A program made the translations under genes and the position numbers. Below the pieces are notes generated by a model. The model saw only the letters and a list, made by a program, of their open reading frames with translations, was not told where the DNA came from and did not search any database. A DNA stretch of 21,318 nt from a virus (Duplodnaviria > Heunggongvirae > Uroviricota > Caudoviricetes). Positions 1-21,318 of this stretch are shown piece by piece; positions within the stretch are counted from its first letter, which is position 1; the number at the start of each line of letters is the position of its first letter. The stretch lies in the IMG/VR virus record IMGVR_UViG_2660238462_000004. One strand, 5' to 3'.

Positions 1-57
1 TCAGCAGAACTGATATAATATCTGACCGTCATTTCTGGCTCTTTCTTTTGTTCTGCT

Positions 58-67
58 NNNNNNNNNN
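58..67. other. Assembly gap (run of 10 N)
   Basis: Literal run of n in the sequence; flanking segments are not demonstrably contiguous. Confidence 0.97.
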
Positions 68-492
68 TCGCGATGAAAATCCGGCATCTCAATCCCCGCC
101 AGATGATAAGCATCCCGGAACAGCGTGTAACAGTCCGTCACCCCGTGTTCAAAGCGCCGCCCGGTGAGATGCGGCACACAGCGGAACTTATGAATCGTCC
201 CCCGGCAGACCAGCCACCACGGCAAATCACTCTGCACCTGCAGCCGCCGGTCGGCCTCACTCAGCCAGGGCAGACCACCGGGGTGGCTGTGGACCAGCGC
301 CACAATCTCACCCTGCATTTCTGCCTGCAGCCAGTCTTCCGGCGACATACGGAAATACGCCTCCGGCTCACCGGAGATATTCACGCAGGGGAAATATCTT
401 TCCCCCTCCGGCGTGCTTACCACGAAGCCGCACGACTCCGCTGGCGCACATCGCCGGGCGTGCGCCAGAATCGCTGATTCTGTCTGTGTCAT
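68..492 (-). CDS. K: Tail assembly protein K, N-terminal fragment (JAMM/MPN domain), truncated by the gap at 58-67
   Basis: Minus-strand translation MTQTESAILAHARRCAPAESCGFVV...IVALVHSHPGG...DFHR matches my recollection of lambda gpK almost residue for residue; the HSHPGG motif is JAMM-like. ATG at 490-492. The 3' end is lost in the N run. Confidence 0.85.
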
Positions 493-497
493 GGGAT

Positions 498-726
498 TTA
501 CTGCGAAAGTTTGTTAATGGAAAGGAAGCCGCCAAAGTTGCCGACGTTATTGCGAAACTTACAGCCACTCAGGCATTTGCTGCATTTATCCTTCGTGATA
601 TCGGACGTTGGCTGGTCATATTCATCCGCGACCGCCGGACCGTGATAACCGCACTCATCGCCGCGATAGGTCCAGGTGCAGGTGTTGGCCAGCATGATAC
701 GTCCCGGAAAAACAGCGCCGTCCGTT
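498..726 (-). CDS. L: Minor tail protein L, C-terminal fragment, truncated by the gap at 727-736
   Basis: Minus-strand translation ...MLANTCTWTYRGDECGYHGPAVADEYDQPTSDITKDKCSKCLSGCKFRNNVGNFGGFLSINKLSQ matches the recalled C-terminus of lambda gpL (Cys-rich tail). Stop at 498-500, 5 nt upstream of the K start, as in a lambda L-K junction. Confidence 0.85.
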
Positions 727-736
727 NNNNNNNNNN
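727..736. other. Assembly gap (run of 10 N)
   Basis: Literal run of n. Confidence 0.97.
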
Positions 737-851
737 ACTGGCGGTTGATCCGAACGGTCAGCTTTTATCCCGCTATGAGTCTGGAGCGTGGAAAGTGATT
801 TCTCAGTCTGATTTTGCCCGAGATGTCGCAGCCCTTTTCCAGCGCCTCGGT

Positions 852-861
852 NNNNNNNNNN
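852..861. other. Assembly gap (run of 10 N)
   Basis: Literal run of n. Confidence 0.97.
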
Positions 862-977
862 TCATTCATCGTATTCTGCGCACCATTCTGTTGCCCCTTC
901 CGTGCTGACAAGCGCCAGCGGCAGGCCGCGATGGTCGCAGTGGTACAGGTGGATTTTTCGCGCCGGCGTGTACACCN

Positions 978-987
978 NNNNNNNNNA
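978..987. other. Assembly gap (run of 10 N)
   Basis: Literal run of n. Confidence 0.97.
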
Positions 988-1107
988 GATTTCTGCCCCT
1001 GCCCGGTCGCAGTCCAGTCTGCATCTTCATCATCGAGATAGCTGTCGTCATAGGACTCAGCGGTCAGTTCGCCGGGCGTCAGGTCTTTAACTTTTGCCAG
1101 ACGCGAC
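988..1107 (-). CDS. V: Internal fragment of a second, lambda-type major tail protein V (paralog of the intact V at 16424-17167)
   Basis: Reverse-complement translation [40 protein letters not shown] matches recalled lambda gpV. The intact V in this window reads [38 protein letters not shown] at the same position, so this is a distinct allele bounded by gaps on both sides. Confidence 0.65.
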
Positions 1108-1117
1108 NNNNNNNNNN
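1108..1117. other. Assembly gap (run of 10 N)
   Basis: Literal run of n. Confidence 0.97.
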
Positions 1118-1345
1118 CGTTGATTTAACCCTTACAAAGCAATCAGGGACTGGTAATCGTTTTGTTTTACAGAACTCAGGTAATGCAGAACTACCGTTTT
1201 CTGTCAGGGTGTGGGGTTCCAGTACTCGACAAAACGTTTTTGAGGTTGGAACGTCTGCTGCGTATCTGTTTTATGCGCAAAAACGTCAGCAGGCCAGTTG
1301 TTTGATGTAAATGGCGCTATTAATTGCACAATGCTGAATCAGTCA

Positions 1346-1642
1346 TCAGACCGCGACCTTAAAGACGATATTCTCGTTATCAGCGACGCGACGAAAGCNN
1401 NNNNNNNNTATATAAACGTTTGCCTTACGCGTGGTCGCTTGAGCCAGTACCGGCAGCTGATCTTCTTTTTCAGTAATCAGCCCGGCGAGTTCTGTGGCTG
1501 TTTCCTGTTGTTCCAGATACTCAGCCCGGAGAGCTTTCATCTCCGGCGTTACGATGCCGCCGCTCTGGTTAAGCAGTTCCCTGAACTGCGCCCGATTGTC
1601 TTTGCTGGCCTGCTCAGTTTCGGTCTGATGCTGGCGCAGAGC
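1346..1642 (-). CDS. Fragment(s) of an unidentified protein, interrupted by the gap at 1399-1408
   Basis: Minus-strand frame reads ...FRELLNQSGGIVTPEMKALRAEYLEQQETATELAGLITEKEDQLPVLAQATTRKANVYI, then after the gap FRRVADNENIVFKVAV and a stop. Protein-like composition but not recognised; continuity across the gap is not guaranteed. Confidence 0.3.
   Translation of the reverse strand, partial: ALRQHQTETEQASKDNRAQFRELLNQSGGIVTPEMKALRAEYLEQQETATELAGLITEKEDQLPVLAQATTRKANVYIXXXXFRRVADNENIVFKVAV
1399..1408. other. Assembly gap (run of 10 N)
   Basis: Literal run of n. Confidence 0.97.
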
Positions 1643-1652
1643 NNNNNNNNNN
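1643..1652. other. Assembly gap (run of 10 N)
   Basis: Literal run of n; the Q reading frame is open right up to this gap. Confidence 0.97.
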
Positions 1653-1653
1653 C

Positions 1654-1953
1654 GCCGGTTTTAAGGGATTAATTACTTCAAAAGTAAAATCTCGCCCGCA
1701 ATGTTGTGACGATGACGCGATGATCATTTGCGGGTGCATGGCCCGTCTGAAAAAGAACAACAGCGATTTGCACGATTTATTAGTAGATTATTATGTAGTC
1801 GGTATGACATTCATGTCACTGGCAGGTAAGCATTGCTGCTCTGATGGTTATATCGGGAAAAGGTTACAGAAGGCTGAGGGCATAATTGAAGGGATGTTAA
1901 TGGCATTAGATATCCGGTTAGAGATGGATATCGTTGTTAATAACTCTAATTAA
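1654..1953 (+). CDS. quuD: Late-gene antiterminator Q (QuuD/YbcQ-like), 3' portion only; 5' end lost in the gap
   Basis: Frame is open from the gap edge: [99 protein letters not shown], stop TAA 1951-1953. Matches my recollection of the C-terminal ~100 aa of E. coli prophage QuuD. Position upstream of the lysis cassette fits. Confidence 0.65.
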
Positions 1954-1980
1954 TACGCCAATTATTTACTAAAAGTTATT

Positions 1981-2010
1981 AAAAATGGGGCGTTGAGACG
2001 CCCCCAAAAA
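1981..2010 (-). terminator. GC stem-loop with flanking T/A runs; likely intrinsic terminator for the porin transcript
   Basis: ggggcg(1987-1992)-ttgaga-cgcccc(1999-2004); on the minus strand the stem is followed by attttt; on the plus strand by A-rich sequence. Confidence 0.45.
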
Positions 2011-2141
2011 TAAAGGGTAATATATAACAGAAGGTTTATATAGTTAGAAGCAAGGTTGTGCTCCTAAAGGAAGTGGCTTGAGGGAGCCACTTATATGTTG
2101 GGGAGGCAAAGCCTCCCGCAACATATCTTTTAGTAATCAAA

Positions 2142-3224
2142 TTAGAACTGGTAAACCATACCTACAGCAACGATATCATCGGTAGCAACGCCAGATGCTT
2201 TCGTGAAATCGCTCTTATCAATCAGGTTGATTTTGTAATCAACAAAAGTGGACATATTTTTGTTGAAGTAATAGGTTGCACCTACATCAATATATTCAAC
2301 CAAGTCCTGATCACCCCACGCACCCAAGTCTTTTCCTTTAGATTGCAGGTAAGCAACGGACGGACGCAGACCGAAGTCGAACTGATATTGTGCAACTACT
2401 TCGAAGTTTTGTGCTTTGTTGGCAATATGGTTATTACCAAAAACAGTCATGTTCTGGGTTTCAGAATAGGTGGTAGCCAGATAGATGTTGTTCGCATCAT
2501 ATTTCAGACCAGCTGCCCATACTTCAGCATTTTGACCAGATGCATTCAGGCTGTTGTTACCGTAGATAACCTGATTATTAGTGCGGTCAGATTTAGCATA
2601 GGTTGCACCTACACCGAATCCTTCATACTCATAAGTAGTGGAGAAACCGAAACCATCACCATTAGCTTCAGTTACGTCAGTGCGGTCATTTTTACCCTGA
2701 TACTGAGCAGCAAAGTTCAGACCATCAACCAGACCAAAGAAGTCATTGTTACGATAAGTTGCAACACCTGTGGTGCGACCAGTCATGAATACATCTGTTT
2801 GGGTCCAGGTATCGCCACCGAATTCTGGCAGAACGTCGGTCCATGCACCAATATCGTATGCTACACCGTAGTTACGGCCATAATCGATGGAGCCGTAGTC
2901 ACCGAATTTCAGGCCAGCGAAGGCAAGACGGGTTTTATCTTTGGAGGAACCTTGAGATTCAGCGCGGTTGCCTTTGAATTCATATTCCCACTGACCGAAA
3001 CCAGTCAGTTGATCGTTGATTTGGGTTTCACCTTTGAAGCCAAGACGGGCATAAGTAGTATCACCATCATCTGCATCATTAGAGGAGAAGTAGTGCTTAG
3101 CATTAACTTTCCCGTACAGATCCAGCTTGTTACTGTCTTTATTATAAATTTCAGCTGCCTGAGCAGACATCGCCATCAGTACTGATGCAGCTACAGCAGA
3201 AATTGCCACTGTTAATTTTTTCAT
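2142..3224 (-). CDS. nmpC: Outer-membrane general porin, OmpC/OmpF family (NmpC/OmpD-like prophage porin)
   Basis: 360 aa from ATG at 3222-3224: signal peptide [23 protein letters not shown], then [23 protein letters not shown]..., C-terminal ...VAVGMVYQF (terminal Phe typical of beta-barrel OMPs). The six-frame ORF extends 20 codons further upstream but the signal peptide fixes the start. Confidence 0.9.
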
Positions 3225-3592
3225 CGTGAGCCCTTTTTTTGAACTATTATTAAAAAATGATGTCACTGCGCGATAAATATTCATCTAATCAATGTGATTA
3301 TTTCAAGATGTAAGTTTTGGTTTCTCATTTGATTTGTGAAGTAGATCTCTATTTTTATCTGAACTTTTTCTATCGAATCCTATTCATGGCTCTTGGCTGA
3401 ATAAAAATAAATCTATTAGCCAATTTATATTAATGGCTGTTATTTATAAGTGCTCTATAATTTGAAGATTCAATTTAAACCAGCTAAAAATAACGCTGGA
3501 AATTATTTGTTGGTTATTTGTTGAGATTTGCTTATGTATTTGTAGTGGTGTTTTCAATACTCGGTAGCATTCTCGCAAATATCATTTAGTGG

Positions 3593-3620
3593 TTTACGTA
3601 CGTAAAAAATTGGTTATGCT
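3593..3620 (+). promoter_or_regulatory. Candidate late promoter (pR'-like) upstream of the lysis genes
   Basis: -35-like tttacg (3593-3598), 16-nt spacer, -10-like tatgct (3615-3620), inside a 590-bp AT-rich leader. Loosely resembles the lambda pR' arrangement (shared aaaattgg spacer motif). Inference only. Confidence 0.25.
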
Positions 3621-3653
3621 GTTAAGAGTGGTTACTTCGTCACACAGCTTAAA

Positions 3654-3682
3654 CCCGCCGTCGAGCGGATTTTTCCATTTTT
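3654..3682 (+). terminator. Candidate tR'-like terminator or pause hairpin
   Basis: Short GC stem ccgc/gcgg (3655-3668) with 6-nt loop followed by atttttccatttttt. Stem is only 4 bp, so weak. Confidence 0.3.
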
Positions 3683-3811
3683 TGAGTCTCGATATTAGCT
3701 GATAACCCAATACCTGAGTTATTCACTGACTCCGAGTCTGTTACGTTTCTGCTTTTTTGCGATACGTTGTATTCCCTCAATTTACACCCGCTTTGTCTGC
3801 GAGGTGGGGTT

Positions 3812-4027
3812 ATGAAATCCATGGATAAGTTAACAACGGGTGTCGCCTATGGCACCTCAGCAGGTAGTGCCGGGTACTGGTTTTTACAGTTGCTCGATAA
3901 AGTCACGCCCTCACAGTGGGCGGCAATAGGTGTGCTGGGTAGTCTGGTGTTTGGCCTGCTGACGTATCTGACAAATCTTTATTTCAAGATTAAAGAAGAC
4001 AAGCGTAAGGCTGCACGGGGAGAGTAA
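3812..4027 (+). CDS. essD: Class II holin (phage 21 S21-type pinholin) with dual-start motif
   Basis: 71 aa [71 protein letters not shown]; two predicted TM segments; Met1 and Met4 give the antiholin/holin dual start; SD gaggtgggg at 3801-3809. The track ORF begins at an upstream TTG (3767) that I discount. Confidence 0.85.
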
Positions 4028-4031
4028 TTCA

Positions 4032-4553
4032 ATGACTCAAAACTATGAACTGATTGTGAAAGGGATCCGCAATTTTGAGAATAAAGTTACGGTAACTTTA
4101 GCGTTACGGGACAAAAACCGCTTTGACGGTGAAATTTTTGACCTGGACATCTCGCTGGACCGTGTTGAAGGTGCCGCGCTGGAGTTTTATGAGGCAGCAG
4201 CCAGAAGGAGCATCAGACAGGTCTTCCTGGATGTTGCTGCCGGGTTATGTGAAGGGGATGAGCAGTCGCCGGAAAAGCGCCCCATAATTTTAGAGGCGCA
4301 GAATGTGTGGATAACCTACAAAGGAAAGCTACCGGGAAGAATTACTGGTTCTCTGAAGACGCCACCGACGGCATTGCGGTCAGAAAAAGATGATATTGAA
4401 TCGCCCATTGAAAAACTGGAGGGCAGCGTCGCTGATCTGAATAAAAAATTGTCGGTGCTGATTCCTTCTGAAGATGAAAAAAAACGCCGCGATGAGCAGT
4501 TTGCGGCGTTTTACGATTATTGCATTGAAGTTACTCTCGCAGGAATTTTGTGA
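4032..4553 (+). CDS. Hypothetical protein, N-terminal part YdfR/DUF1327-like, with a C-terminal extension
   Basis: ATG 4 nt after the holin stop; MTQNYELIVKGIRNFENKVTVTLALRDKNRFDGEIFDLDISLDRVEGAALEFYEAAARRSIRQVFL... resembles my recollection of prophage YdfR (about 100 aa), which sits between holin and endolysin in Qin. Here the frame runs to 173 aa with a Lys/Glu-rich tail. Confidence 0.5.
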   Translation: MTQNYELIVKGIRNFENKVTVTLALRDKNRFDGEIFDLDISLDRVEGAALEFYEAAARRSIRQVFLDVAAGLCEGDEQSPEKRPIILEAQNVWITYKGKLPGRITGSLKTPPTALRSEKDDIESPIEKLEGSVADLNKKLSVLIPSEDEKKRRDEQFAAFYDYCIEVTLAGIL

Positions 4554-4793
4554 AGATTTTTGAGGAGGGTAAATCTCTTCAGTAAGCTTAATGGCGGACG
4601 CTGCAATTAATTCAGGAAGGTCCGCAAGGTCATCTGTCAGTGGATATGATGAAAAATCGGCGGCAGTTCTGTTAAGAAGCGCTTTAACTAATTCCTTTTC
4701 CTTCTCCGGCAACAAGTTGATTAGAGCTACGACTGCTTGCCTGAGTGCGATTAAATCAGCAAAAGTTTGTTTAGGTAGATTTGTGTAATCCAT
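4380..4793 (-). CDS. Hypothetical small protein; N-terminal 75 aa look coding, the distal part overlaps antisense to 4032-4553 and may be a shadow or remnant
   Basis: ATG at 4791-4793 with SD gagg 6 nt upstream (minus strand). MDYTNLPKQTFADLIALRQAVVALINLLPEKEKELVKALLNRTAADFSSYPLTDDLADLPELIAASAIKLTEEIYPPQKS... is helical and acidic. No stop until 4380; the last ~58 codons are Phe/Ile-rich, as expected for antisense of a Lys/Glu-rich coding region. Confidence 0.3.
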   Translation of the reverse strand: MDYTNLPKQTFADLIALRQAVVALINLLPEKEKELVKALLNRTAADFSSYPLTDDLADLPELIAASAIKLTEEIYPPQKSSQNSCESNFNAIIVKRRKLLIAAFFFIFRRNQHRQFFIQISDAALQFFNGRFNIIFF

Positions 4794-4906
4794 AGTCGCC
4801 TCTGTGTTTATCAGATTGACATCCTCCTCCCGCCAGTGCCCATCACTGGTGAGGTAAGATTTAACATATCCGGGGATTTGAAGCCGATAAATCCTGATAA
4901 ATATCC

Positions 4907-5934
<1,028 letters not shown>

Positions 5935-6117
5935 ATTAATATTAAATCGGATTATTTTTAGCGCTGAATGTGAAATTTAAATAAAAAGGACTCTTCCATG
6001 AGTCAAAATCCTTGAAATCTTAAGGGTAAGATAAAAGGTCATTAGACAGAATGACACGTTTTATTAATAAATAAAGCTATTGTTTCATTCGTGTGTTTTT
6101 CTTTACAAAAGTAATCC

Positions 6118-6146
6118 TTGCTATGGTTGGTTAATCATGCGTTAAT
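6118..6146 (+). promoter_or_regulatory. Candidate cspA-like promoter driving a long 5' UTR
   Basis: ttgcta (6118-6123), 17-nt spacer, gttaat (6141-6146), in an AT-rich upstream region; predicted leader ~145 nt to the csp ATG, comparable to the cspA leader. Confidence 0.35.
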
Positions 6147-6297
6147 GGTGTTCTGGTTTGTTACAAAATTATCTGAAGCAGTCATTGTTATAATTTTATT
6201 ATTTGTACCTCTTGAGATTTCCTTGTTGGTTTTTCTCTCTGATATTTTTTTTCGGACCATTCTGCCCAAGGGCTAACTTCTTCAAAAGGTAATAATG

Positions 6298-6510
6298 ATG
6301 TCTAACAAAATGACTGGTTTAGTGAAATGGTTTAACCCTGAAAAAGGTTTTGGTTTCATCACGCCGAAAGATGGTAGCAAAGATGTGTTTGTCCATTTCT
6401 CAGCTATTCAGAGCAACGATTTCAAAACGTTAACTGAGAATCAGGAAGTCGAATTTGGTATTGAGAACGGACCTAAAGGCCCCGCGGCTGTTCATGTTGT
6501 GGCACTTTGA
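6298..6510 (+). CDS. cspI: Cold-shock protein, CspA family (CspI-like)
   Basis: 70 aa [70 protein letters not shown] with RNP1/RNP2-like motifs (KGFGFI, VFVHF); SD aagg 8 nt upstream. Confidence 0.9.
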
Positions 6511-6709
6511 GGTAGAAAATATTACAAACCATATTCACTTTAGATGCCCGTGTTGCCATGGTTCTCAGTATAGAACATCATCTTTTGATGTTTCTGACAG
6601 GAATCCTTTCGGGGCAAAATGTATCTTTTGTAAATCAATGATGATTACATTTGATAATATTTCACAATACTTAAATGTTAGCCGTCTATCGTTAGATTTA
6701 AGAAAGTGA
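6494..6709 (+). CDS. Small zinc-ribbon protein (YnfQ/YmcF-like) downstream of csp; start codon uncertain
   Basis: Frame encodes ...[57 protein letters not shown] with CxCC...CxxC. The first ATG (6494) lacks an SD and overlaps csp; a GAGG (6509-6512) lies 8 nt upstream of an in-frame ATT (6521), which would give a 62-aa product. Confidence 0.5.
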
Positions 6710-6714
6710 AAATG

Positions 6715-6737
6715 AAGGCTCCTTCGGGAGCTTTTTT
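6715..6737 (+). terminator. Intrinsic terminator after the csp/zinc-ribbon unit
   Basis: aaggctcc-ttcg-ggagc stem with UUCG tetraloop followed by tttttt, 6 nt after the stop at 6709. Confidence 0.6.
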
Positions 6738-6857
6738 GCTTAGTGTCTAGTCGATGGATACTCACATATTACGGTAACATTATGAAAAAAAATAATAGTT
6801 TTTTTTAACTCTGAACCAGCAATGGTAGTGCCAGTGATGACCGGAGTTAACACCATC

Positions 6858-7013
6858 ATGCGTGAATATCCAAATGGCGAAACAACACACCTCACTGTAA
6901 TGGCTGCAGGGTTTCCATCTCTGACCGGAGATCATAAAGTCATTTATGTAGCAGCGGATCGACATGTAACTTCAGAAGAAATTCTGGAAGCAGCAATGAG
7001 ACTCTTGAATTGA
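6858..7013 (+). CDS. ynfN: YnfN-like small protein (cold-shock-island protein)
   Basis: MREYPNGETTHLTVMAAGFPSLTGDHKVIYVAADRHVTSEEILEAAMRLLN (51 aa) matches my recollection of Qin ynfN and its position between csp and gns. In-frame ATGs at 6822 and 6837 are alternative starts. Confidence 0.45.
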   Translation: MREYPNGETTHLTVMAAGFPSLTGDHKVIYVAADRHVTSEEILEAAMRLLN

Positions 7014-7185
7014 TTTGATTCTAATGCATTGATAATAAATGATAATCATCTTTATCTGTTTGTGTGAAATTTAGACCGTCGTATGTTGATTATTGCGATG
7101 TTTCATCTTATCTTTTATACGTTTGCTCCATATAATTGACACTACTGTGTACCAGGAAAGTCATAACAGACTAAAAGAGGAAATG

Positions 7186-7359
7186 ATGAACATTGAAGAG
7201 TTAAAAACAAAAACAGAAGCAGATATTTCTGAATATATAACAAAAAAAATCATTGAGCTTAAGAAAAAGACCGGGAAAGAAGTTACCAGTATCCAGTTTA
7301 CTGCACGGGAAAAAATGACTGGTCTTGAAAGCTATGATATCAAGATTGATTTAATCTAG
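7186..7359 (+). CDS. gnsB: GnsA/GnsB-family protein
   Basis: 57 aa MNIEELKTKTEADISEYITKKIIELKKKTGKEVTSIQFTAREKMTGLESYDIKIDLI; strong SD aagagg 5 nt upstream; close to recalled GnsA/GnsB sequences. Confidence 0.75.
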   Translation: MNIEELKTKTEADISEYITKKIIELKKKTGKEVTSIQFTAREKMTGLESYDIKIDLI

Positions 7360-7424
7360 TCTGTTTAGTATTAGCATCAATTTCTCATCAGATGCTATTC
7401 AACAATACAAATTACCCATAAACC

Positions 7425-7455
7425 TCGTTTTTACGGGGTTTTGTTATATTTAAAC
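7425..7455 (+). terminator. Possible terminator hairpin downstream of the gns gene
   Basis: aaacctcg-ttttt-acggggttt stem-loop followed by T-rich sequence (coordinates approximate). Confidence 0.3.
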
Positions 7456-7652
7456 ATTACCGAATAGGTATAAATCTCGATTGTCGATGGTATTGGTTGT
7501 GTGACAATACCTAGTCTTTCCGGTATGCCTGAAGAGAATACAAACGACAGATTATGTAAGGGAAACGCGCTGAATCTTTAACTCTTTCATGCTGAGTGAT
7601 TTGACGTTATATTTTTAGCCGTAAGTGAAGAGCAAACGCATGGAGCGACAAA

Positions 7653-7859
7653 ATGCATAAAGATCAATACACTGATGCCCCCTCCCAGGAGCAGGTTCGT
7701 GTAAAAACTATGCTTAATAGCACCATTTCGATGGGTTACCCGGATGTTGTAATTGCATGTATAGAACATCAAGTGTCTCTGGAAGCATTCAGGGCAATTG
7801 AGGCCGCGTTAGTAAAGCACGATAAGAATACGAAGGATTATTCCCTGGTGGTTGACTGA
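7653..7859 (+). CDS. Hypothetical 68-aa protein upstream of the packaging genes (possibly YlcI/YnfO-like)
   Basis: ATG with SD ggag 7 nt upstream; [68 protein letters not shown]; not recognised with certainty. Confidence 0.4.
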
Positions 7860-8199
7860 TCACCATAACTGCTAACCATTCTGACCATTTCACAAGTGAC
7901 AGAGTCAATATCGTATTCTGTCACTGTCAGGCTAATACAGCAATGCAATTCAACTACAGCAATGCCTCGTATTTAGGTGAATTTACAATATCGTCCAGTT
8001 CGGATGCCGGCTGCATTTCTGAAGATAAGGCATTTCGGTTCTCGTATTTTCCCCTCATGCTCGTCAGTCCTGCGCGTAGTAAGAAACAGGACACTCACAC
8101 TAATTTGTGTGGGCATGCTGTGATGTCCTTCTGAATTATCCCCATGCCATTATGTAAAGCTCTGTTTCAGATGCTCGTCACGGTTGTCAGGCTGTCGGG

Positions 8200-8290
8200 T
8201 CCTCCCAGTGGGGGTCCCTGCCACGGGGCGGGAGCGTCGCGGAAAAAGGCTAGTTTTTGCATTTCCATGGCGGCGGCAGCATGTTTGGTA
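8200..8290. other. Candidate cos / packaging-initiation region
   Basis: GC-rich island (ggggtccctgccacggggcgggagcgtcgcgg ... catggcggcggcagcatg) in an AT-rich intergenic region, ~180-200 bp upstream of the terminase small-subunit start, as lambda cosN lies ~190 bp upstream of Nu1. The gggcgg...cgcgg motif resembles the lambda cohesive-end region. Confidence 0.3.
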
Positions 8291-8421
8291 ATTTATTGAT
8301 AATTAAAAGTTATTTCTCTTTTCAGCTGTACAATATTTTTTTCTCCCTGTCATTAGACTAGTTTGCAATTAATTGAAATATATAAATAAACCTGATTTTC
8401 ACCTGCCAGATGGAGTTGCTT

Positions 8422-8949
8422 ATGTCAAATGTGAGCGGGATCGGTGATGCTTATTACTGGAGTGTTTTTAAAATCGCCGAGGCCTTTGGGCTTCACTGGG
8501 ACACAGTAAAAAAACGGCTCCTCGCGGCCAACACTCCTGTGGCTGCGACTGTCAGGGGGAACCCCGTTTACGCCCTGCAGCATGTCGGGCCTGCCCTGTT
8601 TAGTGTGAAGCATGAGGCAGCAGACTCTGTTCATGATCCATCCCGTATGGAGCCGAAAGAGAGAAAGGACTGGTACCAGTCGGAAAATGAAAGGATCAAG
8701 CTGGAAAAGGAGCAGCGAAAACTCATCCCCGTTGATGAAGTAGTCATCGTCTATTCGTCCATGAGAAAGGCTGTCGTCCAGGTTCTGGAGACAATTCCGG
8801 ATGTTCTTGAACGCGATTGCGCCCTGACTCCTCAGGCCGTTGGCGTTGTACAGCAGGCCATTGATGACCTGCGATACACTCTTCAGGAAAAATCCTACGA
8901 GGCTTGTGCTGCTGAATTAATTCCTGATGAGGAAGGAGAGAGTCTCTAG
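8422..8949 (+). CDS. Terminase small subunit (putative DNA-recognition subunit)
   Basis: 175 aa ending 8 nt before the terminase large subunit; SD ggag 6 nt upstream of ATG 8422; N-terminal region plausibly helix-turn-helix; acidic C-terminus. Assigned mainly by position and size. Confidence 0.6.
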   Translation: MSNVSGIGDAYYWSVFKIAEAFGLHWDTVKKRLLAANTPVAATVRGNPVYALQHVGPALFSVKHEAADSVHDPSRMEPKERKDWYQSENERIKLEKEQRKLIPVDEVVIVYSSMRKAVVQVLETIPDVLERDCALTPQAVGVVQQAIDDLRYTLQEKSYEACAAELIPDEEGESL

Positions 8950-8957
8950 GAGGAATA

Positions 8958-11057
8958 ATGGGTTTTTCATCAGCCCGAAATTTGGGAAGGGACATATCGG
9001 CAGGATTTTCCCCACCACGTCGCATGCCGATTTCGGAGGCTGTTAAAAAATTCATGCGTGTTCCCAAGGGGGCTGGTAACTCGGTGCCATGGGATCCTGA
9101 ACTGACACCCTACATCATTGAGCCCATGAACTGCCTGGCATCGCGTGAATACGATGCGGTGATTTTTGTTGGTCCTGCGCGAACAGGGAAGACCATTGGT
9201 CTGATCGATGGATGGATTGTCTATACCATCGTTTGCGATCCTTCGGACATGCTCGTTGTGCAGATGACCGAAGATAAGGCCCGCGAGCATTCAAAAAAGC
9301 GCCTCGACAGAACGTTCAGAAGCAGTGCGGCGGTAAAGAAAAGAATGAGTCCACGTCGTAATGACAATAATGTCCATGATAAGACGTTCAGGGATGGCTC
9401 GTTCCTTAAAATTGGTTGGCCCTCGGTCAACATTATGTCGTCGTCGGATTACCGGTTTGTCGCCTTAACCGATTACGACCGTTTTCCGGAGAATATCGAC
9501 AGCGAGGGTGATGGTTTCTCCCTGGCCTCAAAACGTACCACCACATTTATGTCCGCCGGGATGACTCTGGTGGAGAGCTCGCCGGGACGTGACATCTGCG
9601 ACAGCAAATGGCGACGTAAGTCGCCTCATGAAGCGCCACCGACGACTGGTATTCTTTCCCTTTACAATCGTGGTGACCGCCGCCGCTGGTACTGGCCATG
9701 TCCGCACTGCGGTGAATATTTTCAGCCAGCCATGGATGCCATGACCGGCTACCGTAATGAACCGGATCCCTTTAAAGCCAGTGAGGCGGCGTATCTACTT
9801 TGCCCGCACTGCAGCGGCATTATCACGGCGGAGAAAAAGCGTGAGCTCAATAGTGCAGGAGTCTGGTTGCGTGAAGGTCAGGTCATTGATTGTAACGGCA
9901 ACGTTTCCGGTGAACCGCGCCGCTCCCGTATCGCCAGTTTCTGGATGGAAGGGCCAGCTGCTGCGTATCAGACCTGGGCGCAACTGGTTTACAAATTACT
10001 GACTGCAGAACAGGAGTATGAAGCGACAGGAAGTGAAGAAACACTCAGGGCGGTTATCAACACCGACTGGGGATTACCTTATCTTCCCCGCGCCAGCATG
10101 GAGCAACGAAAAAGTGAACTGCTTGAGCAGCGGGCAGAGCCAGTTCCTTCCCGCAGTGTGCCGGATGGCGTTAATTTTCTTGTGGCGACAGTGGATGTGC
10201 AGGCGGGACGTCATCGCCGTTTTGTGGTTCAGGTAACGGGCTATGGCAGCCGTGGCGAACGCTGGATTATTGATCGTTACAACATCACGCAGTCATTGCG
10301 CGGTGACAGCGACGGGGAGAGCCAGCGAATTGATCCGGCCAGCTATCCGGAAGACTGGGATGTCCTGCTGACGGATGTTTTTCATAAAAGCTGGCCGCTG
10401 GCCTCCGATCCTTCTCAACAAATGCGACTGATGGCAATGGCGGTGGACTCCGGCGGTGAAGACGGGGTCACTGATAATGCCTATAAATTCTGGCGTCGTT
10501 GCCGTCGTGATGGCCTTGGTAAACGTATTTACCTGTTTAAGGGCGACAGCATCCGGCGCGCAAAACTGATCACCCGTACATTCCCTGATAACACCGGACG
10601 AACGGGCCGACGGGCGCAGGCCGCAGGTGATGTGCCGCTCTGGCTTCTTCAGACGGATGCACTGAAAGACCGGGTGAATAACGCGTTATGGCGTGACTCG
10701 CCAGGTCCCGGCTATGTGCATTTCCCTGACTGGCTGGGGAGCTGGTTTTACGACGAACTGACGTATGAAGAGCGGAGCAGTGACGGGAAATGGAGTAAGC
10801 CGGGTCGCGGTGCCAACGAAGCTTTTGACCTGATGGTGTATGCCGAGGCTCTGGTCATTCTGCATGGATACGAAAAGATCCGCTGGCCGGATGCACCGGA
10901 GTGGGCGAGCCGGGAAACCTGGCTGGAGTGTGTCCCGGACAGTACCGAACCGTCATCCTCACCGGAACCGGTATCCACGCCTGTTAAAAAACAAAAACGG
11001 AAGAAAACAGTAACTGACGATGTTAACCCCTGGCTGACTTCCGGAGGATGGTTATGA
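8958..11057 (+). CDS. Terminase large subunit (gpA family)
   Basis: 699 aa; Walker A VFVGPARTGKTIG; Cys-rich CPHCGEYF and CPHC motifs; strong SD aggagg; placed between TerS and W/portal. Confidence 0.9.
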   Translation: MGFSSARNLGRDISAGFSPPRRMPISEAVKKFMRVPKGAGNSVPWDPELTPYIIEPMNCLASREYDAVIFVGPARTGKTIGLIDGWIVYTIVCDPSDMLVVQMTEDKAREHSKKRLDRTFRSSAAVKKRMSPRRNDNNVHDKTFRDGSFLKIGWPSVNIMSSSDYRFVALTDYDRFPENIDSEGDGFSLASKRTTTFMSAGMTLVESSPGRDICDSKWRRKSPHEAPPTTGILSLYNRGDRRRWYWPCPHCGEYFQPAMDAMTGYRNEPDPFKASEAAYLLCPHCSGIITAEKKRELNSAGVWLREGQVIDCNGNVSGEPRRSRIASFWMEGPAAAYQTWAQLVYKLLTAEQEYEATGSEETLRAVINTDWGLPYLPRASMEQRKSELLEQRAEPVPSRSVPDGVNFLVATVDVQAGRHRRFVVQVTGYGSRGERWIIDRYNITQSLRGDSDGESQRIDPASYPEDWDVLLTDVFHKSWPLASDPSQQMRLMAMAVDSGGEDGVTDNAYKFWRRCRRDGLGKRIYLFKGDSIRRAKLITRTFPDNTGRTGRRAQAAGDVPLWLLQTDALKDRVNNALWRDSPGPGYVHFPDWLGSWFYDELTYEERSSDGKWSKPGRGANEAFDLMVYAEALVILHGYEKIRWPDAPEWASRETWLECVPDSTEPSSSPEPVSTPVKKQKRKKTVTDDVNPWLTSGGWL

Positions 11058-11266
11058 ACCAGAATGATATCGAAGCCATGATTCAGCGTTATACGGAAGC
11101 TGAAATGGCGGTGCTGGACGGAAAATCCGTCACCTTTAATGGTCAGCAGATGACCATGGAAAACTTATCTGAGATCCGGCAGGGACGGCAGGAGTGGGAG
11201 CGCCGCCTTGCGGCTCTGATTACACGACGACGGGGGCATCCCGGGTATCGGCTGGCGAGGTTCTGA
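11054..11266 (+). CDS. Head-tail joining protein gpW-like
   Basis: ~70 aa MNQNDIEAMIQRYTEAEMAVLDGKSVTFNGQQMTMENLSEIRQGRQEWERRLAALITRRRGHPGYRLARF; resembles the end of lambda W; start overlaps the TerL stop and the stop overlaps the portal start. Confidence 0.75.
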   Translation: MNQNDIEAMIQRYTEAEMAVLDGKSVTFNGQQMTMENLSEIRQGRQEWERRLAALITRRRGHPGYRLARF

Positions 11267-12774
11267 TGGCAATTCTTGATGATGTGATTGGCGTTTTTTC
11301 ACCAGGATGGAAAGCGGCAAGGCTGCGTTCCCGTGCGGTGATCCAGGCTTATGAGGCCGTAAAAACGACGCGGACACACAAAGCCCGACGGGAGAACCGA
11401 ACTGCCGACCAGTTAAGCCAGTACGGGGCCGTGTCGTTACGTGAGCAGGCCCGTTACCTTGATAACAACCACGATCTGGTTATTGGTGTATTTGACAAGC
11501 TGGAAGAACGGGTGGTGGGGAAAAACGGGATTATTGTCGAGCCACATCCGGTATTACGCAATGGGGCCATTGCCCGTGACCTGGCTGCGGAGATTCGCAC
11601 CCGATGGAGTGAATGGTCTGTCAGCCCGGAAGTCACCGGGCAGTTTACCCGTCCGATGCTGGAACGTCTGATGCTTCGTACCTGGCTGCGCGATGGTGAG
11701 GTGTTTGCCCAGATGGTTTCCGGGCGCATAAACAGCCTGACGCCTTCTGCCGGTGTTCATTTCTGGCTGGAGGCGCTCGAGCCGGACTTTATTCCCATGA
11801 CCAGTGATGAGAGCAACAGGCTGAATCAGGGCGTGTTTGTTGATGACTGGGGGCGTCCCGAAAAATATCTGGTGTATAAAAGCCGTCCCGTATCCGGACG
11901 GCAGATGGAAACCAAAGAAGTGGATGCAGAGCGAATGCTGCATCTTAAATTTGTTCGCCGTCTGCACCAGATGCGCGGGACGTCTTTATTGTCCGGTGTG
12001 CTGATCCGCCTCAGTGCTCTGAAAGAGTATGAAGATTCTGAGCTGACTGCAGCAAGGATCGCCGCTGCTCTGGGGATGTACATCCGGAAAGGCGACGGGC
12101 AGAGCTATGAAGCGGATGGTAATGGCAGCAAGGATAAGGAACGCGAGCTTACCATTCAGCCAGGCATTATTTACGATGATCTGAAACCCGGCGAAGAAAT
12201 CGGAATGGTGAAGTCGGATCGCCCCAATCCTAACCTTGAAACTTTTCGTAATGGTCAGTTGCGTGCCGTGGCGGCGGGCAGTCGTCTGAGTTTTTCCAGT
12301 ACAGCGCGCAACTATAACGGCACTTACAGCGCCCAGCGTCAGGAGCTGGTTGAATCCACTGATGGCTACCTGATCCTGCAGGACTGGTTTATTGGTGCCG
12401 TCACCCGTCCGATGTATCGTGCCTGGCTGAAACAGGCTGTGGCATCCGGTGTTATCAGGCTACCCCGCGATCTTGACCGTTCTTCACTGTATACCGCGGT
12501 GTATTCCGGACCGGTGATGCCGTGGATTGACCCTGTTAAGGAGGCTGAGGCCTGGAAAATCCAGATTCGTGGTGGAGCGGCGACAGAATCAGACTGGGTA
12601 CGTGCTGGTGGTCGTAATCCGGATGATGTCAAACGTCGGCGCAAGGCCGAAATTGATGAAAACCGCAAGCTGGATCTGGTATTTGATACCGATCCGGCCA
12701 GTGATAAAGGAGGCAGCAGTGCCGCAACGAAACGACATGAGCCGCAGCACACCGACGACCAGTCCGAAGAATAA
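11266..12774 (+). CDS. Portal protein (lambda gpB family)
   Basis: 502 aa from ATG 11266 (ATGA overlap with the W stop); the track ORF starts upstream at 11194 inside W, which I treat as a frame extension. Confidence 0.9.
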   Translation: MAILDDVIGVFSPGWKAARLRSRAVIQAYEAVKTTRTHKARRENRTADQLSQYGAVSLREQARYLDNNHDLVIGVFDKLEERVVGKNGIIVEPHPVLRNGAIARDLAAEIRTRWSEWSVSPEVTGQFTRPMLERLMLRTWLRDGEVFAQMVSGRINSLTPSAGVHFWLEALEPDFIPMTSDESNRLNQGVFVDDWGRPEKYLVYKSRPVSGRQMETKEVDAERMLHLKFVRRLHQMRGTSLLSGVLIRLSALKEYEDSELTAARIAAALGMYIRKGDGQSYEADGNGSKDKERELTIQPGIIYDDLKPGEEIGMVKSDRPNPNLETFRNGQLRAVAAGSRLSFSSTARNYNGTYSAQRQELVESTDGYLILQDWFIGAVTRPMYRAWLKQAVASGVIRLPRDLDRSSLYTAVYSGPVMPWIDPVKEAEAWKIQIRGGAATESDWVRAGGRNPDDVKRRRKAEIDENRKLDLVFDTDPASDKGGSSAATKRHEPQHTDDQSEE

Positions 12775-14746
12775 TTCCTGGTTCAGGATGCAGGCTGGTC
12801 ACCAGAGTGACGCGGATATTTATATTTATGACGAGATTGGTTTCTGGGGTGTTACAGCGAAGCAGTTTATCAGTGATCTGAATGCACTGGGCGATATCAC
12901 CCACATTAATCTCCATATTAATTCACCGGGTGGCGATGTCTTTGAAGGCATCGCCATTTTTAATGCGCTGAAAACACATGGTGCGTCCATTACCGTTTAT
13001 GTCGACGGTGTGGCGGCGTCAATGGCGTCGGTCATTGCGATGGTGGGAAACCCGGTCATTATGCCGGAAAACACCTTCATGATGATTCATAAACCATTTG
13101 GCTTTACGGGCGGTGATGCGGAGGACATGCGCACCTATGCCGACCTGCTCGATAAAGTTGAGGCGGTTCTGTTACCCGCTTATGCACAGAAAACCGGGAA
13201 AACCACCGATGAAATTGCTGCCATGCTGGCGGATGAGACCTGGATGTCCGGTGCCGAATGTCTGGCACATGGATTTGCTGATCAGGTAACGCCAGCCGTT
13301 AAGGCAATGGCATGTATTCAGTCAAAACGTACAGAGGAATTTAAAAAGATGCCGGAATCCATTCGAAACATGATTACTCCGCCACGCAACAGTGCTCCAC
13401 GCGTACAGGATAATGAACCTGAAGCCTCCCGGACGCCAGTGCAGGCAGCAGCACCCGTGGTGGATGAAAACAGCATCCGTGCGCAGGTACTGGCAGAGCA
13501 AAAAGCGCGTGTAAACGGTATTAATGATCTGTTTGCCATGTTTGGCGGGCGTTATCAGACGCTGCAGGCTCAGTGTCTTGCCGATCCTGAATGTTCGCTG
13601 GAGCAGGCCCGCGAAAAGCTGTTGAACGAGATGGGGCGCGAGTCCACGCCATCCAATAAAAATACCCCGGCTCATATTTATGCCGGTAACGGTAATTTTG
13701 TGGGGGACGGGATCCGCCAGGCGCTGATGGCGCGTGCCGGATTTGAAAAAACCGAACGTGATAATGTCTACAACGGGATGACCCTGCGTGAATATGCCCG
13801 TATGTCACTGACTGAACGGGGTATTGGGGTTTCCAGTTATAACCCGATGCAGATGGTCGGTGCGGCGTTCACACACAGTACGTCTGACTTCGGTAATATT
13901 CTGCTGGATGTTGCGAACAAAGCCATTCTGCAGGGCTGGGAAGATGCCCCTGAAACCTATGAACAGTGGACGCGGAAAGGTCAGTTGTCTGATTTTAAAA
14001 TTGCCCATCGTGTGGGTATGGGTGGCTTCAGTGCTCTGCGTCAGGTGCGTGAAGGGGCGGAATATAAATACGTCACCACCGGAGATAAACAGGCCACTAT
14101 TGCACTGGCGACCTATGGCGAGCTGTTCAGTATCACCCGTCAGGCCATTATCAATGATGATCTGAATATGCTGACCGATGTCCCGATGAAACTGGGCCGT
14201 GCGGCGAAATCCACTATTGCCGATCTGGTTTATGCCATTCTGACGTCTAACCCGAAAATCTCCACAGATAATGTAAGTCTGTTCGATAAAGCGAAACATG
14301 CAAACGTACTGGAGAGCGCTGCAATGGACGTGGCATCGCTGGATAAAGCCCGCCAGTTGATGCGCGTTCAGAAAGAGGGGGAGCGTCATCTGAATATTCG
14401 TCCTGCGTTCGTACTGGTACCGACGGCGATGGAGTCTGTTGCTAACCAGGTCATTCGCTCCTCAAGTGTCAAGGGGGCTGACATTAACGCCGGTATTATT
14501 AACCCGGTGAAAGATTTTGCGACCGTTATTGCAGAGCCTCGTCTTGATGATAACAGCCAGACCACCTTCTACCTGGCTGCGTCAAAAGGCTCCGATACGA
14601 TTGAAGTGGCTTATCTCAACGGTGTGGATACGCCATATATTGATCAGATGGAGGGCTTCAGTGTGGATGGCGTGACAACGAAAGTGCGTATTGACGCCGG
14701 TGTCGCGCCAGTTGATCACCGCGGTCTGGTGAAATGTACGGCGTAA
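12737..14746 (+). CDS. Fused prohead protease (ClpP/S49-like) - scaffold - major capsid protein (HK97-fold)
   Basis: N-terminal ~200 aa carry a ClpP-like region (HINSPGGDVFEGIAIFNALKTHGASITVYVDGVAASMASVIAMVGNPVIMPENTFMMIHKP); the C-terminal ~330 aa look like an HK97-type capsid protein. One uninterrupted frame; the start (ATG 12737 or 12788) overlaps the portal end. Confidence 0.85.
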   Translation: MSRSTPTTSPKNNSWFRMQAGHQSDADIYIYDEIGFWGVTAKQFISDLNALGDITHINLHINSPGGDVFEGIAIFNALKTHGASITVYVDGVAASMASVIAMVGNPVIMPENTFMMIHKPFGFTGGDAEDMRTYADLLDKVEAVLLPAYAQKTGKTTDEIAAMLADETWMSGAECLAHGFADQVTPAVKAMACIQSKRTEEFKKMPESIRNMITPPRNSAPRVQDNEPEASRTPVQAAAPVVDENSIRAQVLAEQKARVNGINDLFAMFGGRYQTLQAQCLADPECSLEQAREKLLNEMGRESTPSNKNTPAHIYAGNGNFVGDGIRQALMARAGFEKTERDNVYNGMTLREYARMSLTERGIGVSSYNPMQMVGAAFTHSTSDFGNILLDVANKAILQGWEDAPETYEQWTRKGQLSDFKIAHRVGMGGFSALRQVREGAEYKYVTTGDKQATIALATYGELFSITRQAIINDDLNMLTDVPMKLGRAAKSTIADLVYAILTSNPKISTDNVSLFDKAKHANVLESAAMDVASLDKARQLMRVQKEGERHLNIRPAFVLVPTAMESVANQVIRSSSVKGADINAGIINPVKDFATVIAEPRLDDNSQTTFYLAASKGSDTIEVAYLNGVDTPYIDQMEGFSVDGVTTKVRIDAGVAPVDHRGLVKCTA

Positions 14747-16423: not shown

Positions 16424-17167
16424 ATGACCACACCAAATCCACTGGCAAAAACGAAAGGTGCGGGAACGACGTTCTGGATGTACACCGGCAAGGGCGATGC
16501 GTTTGCGAACCCTTTATCGGACACTGACTGGCTGCGTCTTGCGATGGTGAAGGATCTGCAACCTGGCGAAATGACCGCTGATGCAGAAGATGACACTTAT
16601 CTCGATGATGAAGATGCAGACTGGAAAACGACAACCCAGGGGCAGAAATCCGTCGGTGATACTTCGGCGACGCTGGCCTGGCGTCCGGGTGACAGCGGAC
16701 AGAAAAAACTGGTTCAGTTGTTCGACTCCGGTGAAGTCTGCGCGTTTCGTATCAAATATCCCAACGGCACTGTTGATGTTTTCCGTGGCTGGCTGAGCTC
16801 ACTGGGTAAAACCATTGCCTCAAAAGACGTGATGACCCACACAGTGAAAATCAGCGGTGTGGGGCGTCCGTATCTGGCAGAGGAAGGCACTGAAACAGTG
16901 AGCGTTACCGGGCTGACGGTGGCACCGGCATCTGCCAGTGTAAAAGTGGGAGCAACCACCACGCTGACCTTTACAGTAAAACCTGACGGAGCCAGTGACA
17001 AAGCGATCAGTGTGCATTCGACAGATCCACAGACTGCCACGGTGACCCTGAACGGGCTTGTGGCCACGGTGAAAGGCGTGAAGCAGGGCAGTGTCAGCAT
17101 TGTGGGCATGACTTCTGACGGCGATTTTGTGGCAGTGGCTGCGGTGGCTGTCAGCGCCGCAGGTTAA
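16424..17167 (+). CDS. Major tail protein gpV-like with C-terminal Ig-like (Big_2-type) domain
   Basis: MTTPNPLAKTKGAGTTFWMYTGKGDAFANPLSDTDW... parallels lambda V; C-terminal ~90 aa are a Thr/Val-rich beta-strand domain; strong SD aaggagg 5 nt upstream. The track ORF starts at GTG 16418. Confidence 0.9.
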   Translation: MTTPNPLAKTKGAGTTFWMYTGKGDAFANPLSDTDWLRLAMVKDLQPGEMTADAEDDTYLDDEDADWKTTTQGQKSVGDTSATLAWRPGDSGQKKLVQLFDSGEVCAFRIKYPNGTVDVFRGWLSSLGKTIASKDVMTHTVKISGVGRPYLAEEGTETVSVTGLTVAPASASVKVGATTTLTFTVKPDGASDKAISVHSTDPQTATVTLNGLVATVKGVKQGSVSIVGMTSDGDFVAVAAVAVSAAG

Positions 17168-20900: not shown

Positions 20901-20989
20901 TGGTTTATGACCTTGGGAAAAAAGCGGCAGCGGACTTTATGCAACAGCAGGCCCGTGATGGTGGTCGGTTAAGTGGAGCATATCGGTAA
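17924..20989 (+). CDS. Tail tape measure protein gpH-like
   Basis: 1021 aa from ATG 17924 (SD ggaggtg); long Ala/Gln/Arg-rich helical regions; C-terminal motif NNDGTNGQIGPAALKVVYDLGKKAAADF matches the recalled lambda H C-terminus. Confidence 0.9.
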   Translation: MDQIANLVIDLGIDAAEFKNEIPRIKNLLNGAASDAERSSARMQRFMERQTQAARQTTQAASSAATAASVHAQTVEKNAQAHERMAREVEKTRQRMEALSQKMREEQAQAMALAEAQDKAAAAFYRQIDSVKQASAGLQELQRIQQQIRQARNSGGIGQQDYLALISEVTAKTRVLTQAEEEATRQKVAFIRQLKEQATRQNLSSSELLRAKAAQLGVSSAAEVYIRKMEQAGKATHSLGLKSAAARQEIGVLIGELARGNLGALRGSGITLANRAGWIDTLMSPKGMMLGGVIGGIAASVYGLGKAWYDGQKEGEEFNRQLSLTGHYAGVTAGQLWTLSRAISGNGITQHAAAGVLAQVVGSGAFRGNDIGMVARAAAQMERSVGQSVSDTINQFKRLKDDPVNAAKALDNELHFLTATQLEQIRVLGDQGRSSDAARIAMSALAEETGRRTADIDNNLNALGSTLKYLSDLWSRFWDAAMNIGREDSLDEQIAALQEKVSRAKRLPWTASSSQVEYDQQRLNDLQEKKRQKDLQDAKEQAERNYQEQQKRRNAENAALNRMNETEAARHQREIARINAMQYADQAVRDAAIQRENERYEKALASGKKKTRETRNDEATRLLLQYSQQQAQVEGQIAAARQSAGIATEKMTEAHKQLLALQQRISDLDGKKLTADEKSVLARKDELIQALTLLDVKQQELQKQTALNDLKKKTIQLTSQLAEEELAQRQQHDLDIATVGMGDQQRQRYQVQLSLRQKYQQQLEQLRRDSEQKGTYNTDDYRKAEQALTESLNRQLNENRRYWQQLEVVQGNWKNGVLRAFQDFTVDADNTAGTAEQVFSSAFSNMGNGLATFVTTGKLNFKSFTSSVLSDMAKILAQATMMKSIKGIGSVLGFDLSSLSLNANGGIYQSADLSRYSGTVVNRPTFFAFAKGAGVMGEAGPEAILPLRRGADGKLGVVADIGGSGMAMFAPQYNIEINNDGTNGQIGPAALKVVYDLGKKAAADFMQQQARDGGRLSGAYR

Positions 20990-21318
20990 TGGAGACGTTT
21001 CACTGGAAAGTGCGCCCGGATATGAATGTGGTATCAGAGCCGAAAGTGGTGACAGTGAAGCTGGGCGATGGTTATGAACAGCGTCGTGCGGCGGGACTGA
21101 ATAACCAGTTGTCGACTTACAGCGTGACGATACGTGTTCGTAAATGTGAACACCCATCTTTAAAAGCCTTTCTGGAACGGCACGGTGGCGTCCGCGCATT
21201 TCAGTGGACGCCACCTTATGACTGGAAGCCGATCAGGGTGGTTTGTCGTAAATGGTCGGCAAGCGTGGGGGCGTTGTGGGTAACCATAACGGCAGATTTT
21301 GAACAGGTCGTGGCATAG
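20989..21318 (+). CDS. Minor tail protein gpM-like
   Basis: 109 aa METFHWKVRPDMNVVSEPKVVTVKLGDGYEQRRAAGLNNQLSTYSVT...TADFEQVVA parallels lambda M (MKTFRWKVKPGMDV...FGDGYSQRAPAGLNANLKTYSVTL...AEFEQVVN); TAATG overlap with the H stop; ends exactly at the window end. Confidence 0.85.
   Translation: METFHWKVRPDMNVVSEPKVVTVKLGDGYEQRRAAGLNNQLSTYSVTIRVRKCEHPSLKAFLERHGGVRAFQWTPPYDWKPIRVVCRKWSASVGALWVTITADFEQVVA

Follow-up and report, generated by a model that had tools for sequence, protein, structure and literature searches.

Does the DNA that precedes a prophage contig in a virus record represent a genuine locus with its own genes and gene order, or is it a product of the assembly? The question is raised by the first 1,652 bases of the Caudoviricetes record IMGVR_UViG_2660238462_000004, a stretch of 21,318 nucleotides that was analysed at its full length and is referred to here as the window. 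A regular-expression scan of all 21,318 bases detected exactly seven runs of N, each of exactly 10 N (58-67, 727-736, 852-861, 977-986, 1108-1117, 1399-1408 and 1643-1652), and no further run in the remaining 19.7 kb. The spacers set apart seven pieces with lengths of 57, 659, 115, 115, 121, 281 and 234 bp (pieces 1 to 7, at 1-57, 68-726, 737-851, 862-976, 987-1107, 1118-1398 and 1409-1642). After the seventh spacer follows a prophage contig of 19.7 kb, which begins 28 codons into the antiterminator gene Q. The initial annotation, made from the sequence before any database search, had described the same seven exact runs between pieces of 57 to 659 bp, and the scan agrees with it except at the end of piece 4, which had been placed at 977; that base is already N, and the true end is 976. 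All seven pieces have both ends mid-gene, four of them are shorter than 200 bp, and they are arranged in no order of size.

Real DNA cannot by chance show seven identical runs of 10 N. By NCBI convention, an N run of 10 or more counts as a gap, and the Velvet manual has any gap with an estimate below 10 bp written as 10 N; a literature search on this Velvet convention returned no usable source. The uniform runs are a placeholder and not measured gaps. Our main reading, to which we give a probability of about 0.93, is that positions 1-1652 are an assembly artefact rather than biology, in which short repeat-derived contigs were joined before the prophage contig. Seven tiny contigs of a short-read E. 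coli draft would have been strung with fixed 10-N placeholders onto the left end of the 19.7-kb contig, presumably by a read-pair or graph scaffolder writing a minimum gap of 10 N. The pieces would originate from at least four unrelated mobile or repeated loci, namely an Rhs element, a second lambda-identical tail module, a distal tail fibre (probably that of the main prophage) and one or two P4-like satellites, all of a kind that short reads cannot resolve. They would be short because related copies in the genome broke the assembly graph.

The identity of the pieces was addressed by comparing each of them with 5,426 complete E. coli genomes by megablast. Piece 2 holds two parts, both on the minus strand: the N-terminal 141 codons of a lambda K-type tail tip assembly protein (JAB/C40 peptidase; 68-492) and the C-terminal 75 codons of a lambda L-type minor tail protein, followed by its stop (498-726). 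In complete E. coli genomes it matches sequence annotated as 'C40 family peptidase / phage minor tail protein L' at 99.7% identity; lambdoid phages, in which the annotation is 'tail tip assembly protein K / L', match at 98-99%. The K part matches the Pfam family Prok-JAB (E 1.8e-14); the L part corresponds to residues 158-232 of lambda gpL, with 74 of 75 residues identical, and aligns to positions 130-206 of the 206 in the Pfam Phage_tail_L profile. Piece 5 (987-1107, minus strand) comes from the interior of a lambda-identical tail tube gene V. Its translation is identical to lambda gpV (PDB) at all 40 residues from 37 to 76, with a match to the Phage_TTP_12 domain. The K, L and V assignments of the initial annotation, and the minus strand that it gave to all three fragments, are borne out by these matches. 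Piece 2 is found at a median of 2 and a maximum of 14 places per E. coli genome. Piece 5 is present at 100% identity in many complete E. coli genomes, with a median of one copy per genome, and its exact sequence occurs in at least 120 IMG/VR contigs among the matches listed.

Do these fragments repeat the tail genes of the adjoining prophage, or do they come from another? Between piece 5 and the window's intact V at 16534-16650 the identity is only 76.9%; piece 5 therefore represents a different V allele, a difference that had been seen from the sequence at the outset. For piece 2, the L/K region of a close relative of the main contig (IMG/VR UViG_2700989272_000005) is 96.1% identical, as against 99.7% in other prophages. 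Both pieces are distinct from the tail module of the main contig, in the case of piece 2 on the assumption that L/K of the source equals that of the relative. In strain 104, both are found in one intact module, with identities of 99.7% (piece 2) and 100% (piece 5) and in the strand and order of the window. From these identities, pieces 2 and 5 are most likely parts of a second, lambda-identical tail module. Its contiguous gene order and spacing (K-L-M-H-T-G-V) are not retained between the two pieces: they are separated by 4,717 bp in strain 104, and by 260 bp with P4-like and Rhs fragments in the window.

Two explanations for the boundaries of these pieces in terms of the prophage's own tail genes were also considered. 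Piece 5 as a bubble arm against the window's V was rejected, as the identity is 77% throughout and identical flanks are lacking. The ends of piece 2 might have marked the limits of long stretches identical to L/K of the main prophage, but this is unsupported, since mismatches occur at intervals of 70 nt or less, across and beyond the ends.

The initial annotation went further and attributed all the pieces to collapsed repeats of several lambdoid prophages, carrying fragments of a second tail module and joined by a scaffolder. Pieces 2 and 5 are what such an origin would produce: they are K/L and V, they lie on the minus strand in the order of an intact module, piece 5 is unlike the window's V, and piece 2 can occupy as many as 14 places in one genome. 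The other five pieces, however, tell against it.

Pieces 1 and 4, to which no identity had been given before, are both non-lambdoid and match Rhs elements and their insertion sequences. Piece 1 (1-57, minus strand) comes from within the transposase gene of ISEc1 (ISAs1 family; H-repeat, ydcC-type), with 100% identity in 4,478 records and a median of 3 copies per genome; it falls within ydcC, a gene coded on the strand opposite to the match. Piece 4 (862-976, minus strand) is an internal fragment of an Rhs core gene, as judged by nucleotide match and by Pfam RHS. Positions 863-976 are 100% identical to RHS core genes, with a median of 5 copies per genome, and the translation matches Pfam RHS (PF03527; E 1.8e-11), so that both the profile and the high nucleotide identity to annotated RHS core genes place it in this family. 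A stop codon had been reported at the end of this piece, after ...AEYDE. It depends only on the terminal base 862: against GAATGA and then N in the window, the reference has GAATGGGGCAAC (E W G N; GAA TGG GGC AAC), and the matching Rhs genes listed all have TGG at the terminus of the piece (EYDEWGN).

Pieces 3 and 7 derive from P4-like satellites, by megablast and by their context in strain S21. Piece 3 (737-851, plus strand), also without an earlier assignment and likewise non-lambdoid, is an internal fragment of a primase-helicase (alpha-like) gene, and piece 7 (1409-1642, minus strand) is an internal fragment of a hypothetical gene. Both sequences are rare. Piece 3 was found in just 228 of the 5,426 genomes (100% identical in 2 and 95-99% identical in 226), normally as one copy each, and piece 7 in just 8 of the 5,426, with a best identity of 99.1% and a median of one copy; two IMG/VR satellite contigs contain piece 7 at 100%. 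In strain S21, an element integrated beside ssrA has piece 3 within its primase-helicase gene of 2,334 nt, and this element also carries the gene of piece 7, adjoining ogr/delta, psu and a sid-like gene. Pieces 3 and 7 thus belong to elements equipped as P4-like satellites are, with an integrase, ogr/delta, psu, a sid-like gene and a primase-helicase. The two pieces share a strand in S21 and in an IMG/VR satellite contig, and piece 7 precedes piece 3 there, 5.2-5.4 kb further upstream; the window has the opposite order. No reference contains both pieces at 100% identity, and they may therefore come from two related satellites.

Piece 6 (1118-1398, plus strand) stems from a side tail fibre gene (S74 peptidase / pyocin-knob type), of which it covers a part close to the 3' end. 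It is 99.6% identical to the best complete genome, the one gap being a 1-nt deletion in an A6 run (AAAAAA), and has a median of 2 copies per E. coli genome. Including this rare 1-nt frameshift, it is 100% identical to UViG_2700989272_000005, the relative introduced above, whose DNA is also 100% identical to positions 19716-21318 of the window and to the compared parts of 4119-10402 (7.9 kb compared). Beyond M, the relative continues with L, K, I, J, lom and a frameshifted stf, and piece 6 lies inside stf, about 8.8 kb downstream of the point that corresponds to the window's last base (in M) and on the strand of the main contig; in the window it stands upstream of Q. The plus strand and the full identity to a fibre gene of the main type indicate that piece 6 is probably part of the first module and not of the second. 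Its most likely origin is the prophage of the main contig itself, at the corresponding distance past the right end of the window, as far as the match to this relative can tell. The main prophage's missing L-K-I-J-stf part is to be sought on other contigs of the same assembly. As for the A6 deletion itself, a homopolymer error of 454 or Ion Torrent sequencing was rejected as its cause, since an independent contig from IMG/VR also has it. Where the main contig and the relative differ by indels, these are located in a divergent terminase segment and not in homopolymers.

With all seven pieces assigned, their order by family is Rhs, lambda, P4, Rhs, lambda, fibre, P4, that is, an interleaving of unrelated loci. 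The region has 1,582 non-N bases, with 780 in pieces 2 and 5, 281 in piece 6 and 521 in the non-lambdoid pieces 1, 3, 4 and 7. The pieces do not all come from lambdoid tail genes. Four of them are ISEc1, a P4-like primase-helicase, an Rhs core and a P4-like gene, and piece 6, a plus-strand sequence, has its match in the fibre gene of the main prophage type; an exclusively lambdoid origin is accordingly highly improbable. What survives of that first interpretation is the second lambda-type tail module for pieces 2 and 5, but not for pieces 1, 3, 4 and 7 or, probably, for piece 6. Similarly, the artificial join holds, and the collapse of lambdoid repeats does not extend to the four of seven pieces that are non-lambdoid. 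Pieces 1, 2, 4 and 6 are multi-copy in other E. coli genomes (medians 3, 2, 5 and 2), while the median is 1 for pieces 3, 5 and 7. Since pieces 3 and 7 occur once in those complete genomes that contain them, repeat collapse is not demonstrated for these two.

Could the region nevertheless be real, as a contiguous junkyard of decayed mobile-element fragments with seven short gaps (masked or left unsequenced), lying before a genuinely truncated Q? Prophage remnants of E. coli do hold strings of gene fragments. In strain E400634, which has a V'-'L deletion junction and partial fibre genes, pieces 2 and 5 are just 649 bp apart. When positions 1-1652 were used as a single query against the 5,426 complete E. 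coli genomes, no place covering at least 80% of it was found. The best coverage was 47%, to which only pieces 2 and 5 contribute; it was reached in four genomes whose decayed prophage has a V'-'L deletion junction. No other pair of pieces occurs together in any of the 5,426 genomes. The same adjacency in independent complete genomes, as would be expected of a real locus, was thus not observed. Nor do the fragments look decayed: those of 57-281 bp are 99-100% identical to intact genes elsewhere. A near-identical prophage has piece 6 at 8.8 kb past the opposite contig end, and the gaps are all exactly 10 N. A real junkyard is very unlikely, to the point of being scarcely credible, given the identity of 99-100%, the mid-gene ends, the lack of adjacency in genomes and the same 10 N throughout. 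The initial warning that the order, the spacing and the adjacency to Q are not to be trusted is upheld by the identities of the pieces, their native spacings and the absence of this adjacency in complete genomes.

A weaker form of this idea would retain part of the scaffold as real linkage, either as a V'-'L remnant of a decayed second lambdoid prophage, like that of strain E400634, with pieces 2 and 5 within about 0.65 kb, or as a whole-stretch graveyard of mobile elements beside a truncated Q. We regard it as very improbable, and, if true, it would amount to a minor strain-specific rearrangement and not to a new kind of system.

If the region is an artefact, how were the pieces joined? One possibility is that leftover contigs, for example those below a 200-bp submission limit, were blindly concatenated through 10-N linkers without any read-pair linkage. 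This would modify the artefact explanation rather than offer a biological alternative to it. It is compatible with the interleaving of unrelated loci, with the four pieces below 200 bp and with the single length of all the linkers. However, the pieces are unsorted by size, and co-orientation as in the native loci was found in four of four comparisons, namely within the pairs of pieces 1 and 4, 2 and 5, and 3 and 7, and between piece 6 and the main contig, which would arise by chance in about 1 in 16 cases. This agreement suggests that the scaffold contains some real linkage information and is not purely random. The shared strand within families mildly favours a read-pair or graph scaffolder, and blind concatenation, though a possibility to be kept in mind, is the more doubtful mode of joining. 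Suffix-prefix overlaps of at least 8 nt were found neither between the ends of the pieces nor between these and the main contig, and adjacency of the pieces in a de Bruijn graph is unsupported, as no terminal overlap reaches 8 nt.

The main contig contains the late region (Q' to M) of a Qin-like lambdoid prophage. Positions 1653-1953 (plus strand) hold a 5'-truncated antiterminator Q of the quuD type with the last 99 of 127 codons, as identified by Pfam and by the quuD match. The translation of 1654-1953 aligns to positions 29-118 of the 118 in the Pfam Phage_antitermQ profile, and the DNA match of the main contig to quuD of the closest complete genome begins 83 nt into the gene. Among the matches listed, eight contigs have an identical porin; seven of them carry an intact Q of 127 aa, and the eighth has an N gap at this position. 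The first 28 codons are thus absent exactly at the contig edge and the gene is intact in seven of eight comparable contigs, which confirms that Q is cut by the contig end, as had been proposed. Beyond the intact Q, most of those contigs continue with ylcG-rusA-ybcO-ninE, and the true upstream neighbour of Q is most likely this usual ninE-ybcO-rusA-ylcG block.

For annotation, positions 1-1652 should not be used as genes, as a gene order or as a prophage boundary. The truncated Q, the stop at the end of piece 4 and the adjacency of tail genes to Q are not to be taken as biology. The pieces are informative about the source strain, which probably carries two or more lambdoid prophages whose tail genes are related, along with Rhs elements that have H-repeats and with one or two P4-like satellites.

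Compared with known systems, pieces 2 and 5 correspond to K, L and V of phage lambda, with the order and strand of an intact module. A lambda tail module spans about 6 kb, whereas the window has just 780 bp of it, and Rhs and P4-like fragments replace the missing 4.7 kb. Pieces 1 and 4 are 100% identical to sequences of E. coli Rhs elements with an H-repeat (ISEc1, ISAs1 family). An rhsC-type (ybf) locus has a gene of the ISAs1 family on the strand of piece 4, about 1.5 kb away from where this piece maps; in contrast to such elements, the window contains just 57 and 115 bp, with lambda and P4-like pieces between them. Pieces 3 and 7 map to the primase-helicase gene and to the gene adjoining ogr/delta, psu and the sid-like gene of P4-like satellite prophages at ssrA. 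As a scaffold, the region is more disordered than a correct repeat-spanning scaffold should be, with unrelated loci interleaved. With Velvet-type short-read scaffolds it shares the uniform 10-N runs, the tiny pieces, the typically multi-copy source sequences and a large contig that ends in a conserved lambdoid gene.

The main contig (window 1653-21318), the late region of a Qin-like lambdoid prophage, shows an abrupt mosaic boundary in window 3798-4119 when compared with its near-identical IMG/VR relative, UViG_2700989272_000005. From window 4119 to at least 10402 the two are 100% identical, whereas the holin gene (window 3801-4015) carries 38 clustered mismatches to the relative, and window 1653-3797, which comprises Q and the porin gene, is without any match in it. 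Otherwise identical prophages have therefore swapped the Q-porin-holin module. The porin is of the OmpC/NmpC type (380 aa; window 2142-3284, minus strand) and is encoded between Q and the holin gene, on the opposite strand. Exact-protein look-up places an identical copy of it in 24 further contigs, one of them E. coli CP002291.

The same relative bears on the tail-fibre fragment in the scaffolded left end (window 1118-1398), in which an A6 run is short by 1 nt. The stf gene of UViG_2700989272_000005 (7789-11099) is broken by the identical 1-nt deletion into ORFs 7789-10629 and 10617-11099. Since an independent assembly shows the deletion too, the frameshift is probably genuine and specific to this lineage rather than a sequencing error.

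In the head region, ClpP-type prohead protease and major capsid domains occupy a single long ORF (window 12527-14746), which is also annotated as a protease/capsid fusion in the closest genome; therefore, the head of this prophage is not lambda-like, although its tail is. At the right end, an M-type minor tail gene (109 aa, Phage_min_tail; window 20989-21318) has a stop codon that ends exactly at the last window base, 21318, and in UViG_2700989272_000005 L begins 10 nt past the M stop. Should the scaffold stop here too, the break in the contig falls at the M/L junction.

A decayed prophage remnant adjoins potB in E. coli E400634 (9429-10536 of the extracted locus), where one deletion has fused L, truncated at its 5' end, with V, truncated at its 3' end, and a second has left the large terminase gene fused with a tail gene; the V'-'L junction is common to four complete genomes. 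The P4-like satellite at ssrA in E. coli S21 is the home of the third and seventh scaffold pieces. In its annotation (7026-11102 of the locus) the integrase is immediately followed by genes for a SIR2-family protein and an ATP-binding protein, at the site of variable defence cargo in such satellites.

A DUF1327 (YdfR-like) ORF (window 4032-4553) encodes 173 aa, whereas the ydfR genes in the two reference prophages encode only 103-116 aa. About 510 bp (window 4368-4879) is unmatched in these same two prophages, and a 60-nt stretch of this segment (4381-4440) is present in 54 IMG/VR contigs. A cspI-like cold-shock gene (window 6295-6510) lies inside the prophage with lysis genes on one side and terminase genes on the other, and the cspA thermoregulator model of Rfam matches across its leader and coding sequence (window 6140-6556; 109.8 bits). 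Qin likewise has its cold-shock gene between the lysis and terminase genes.
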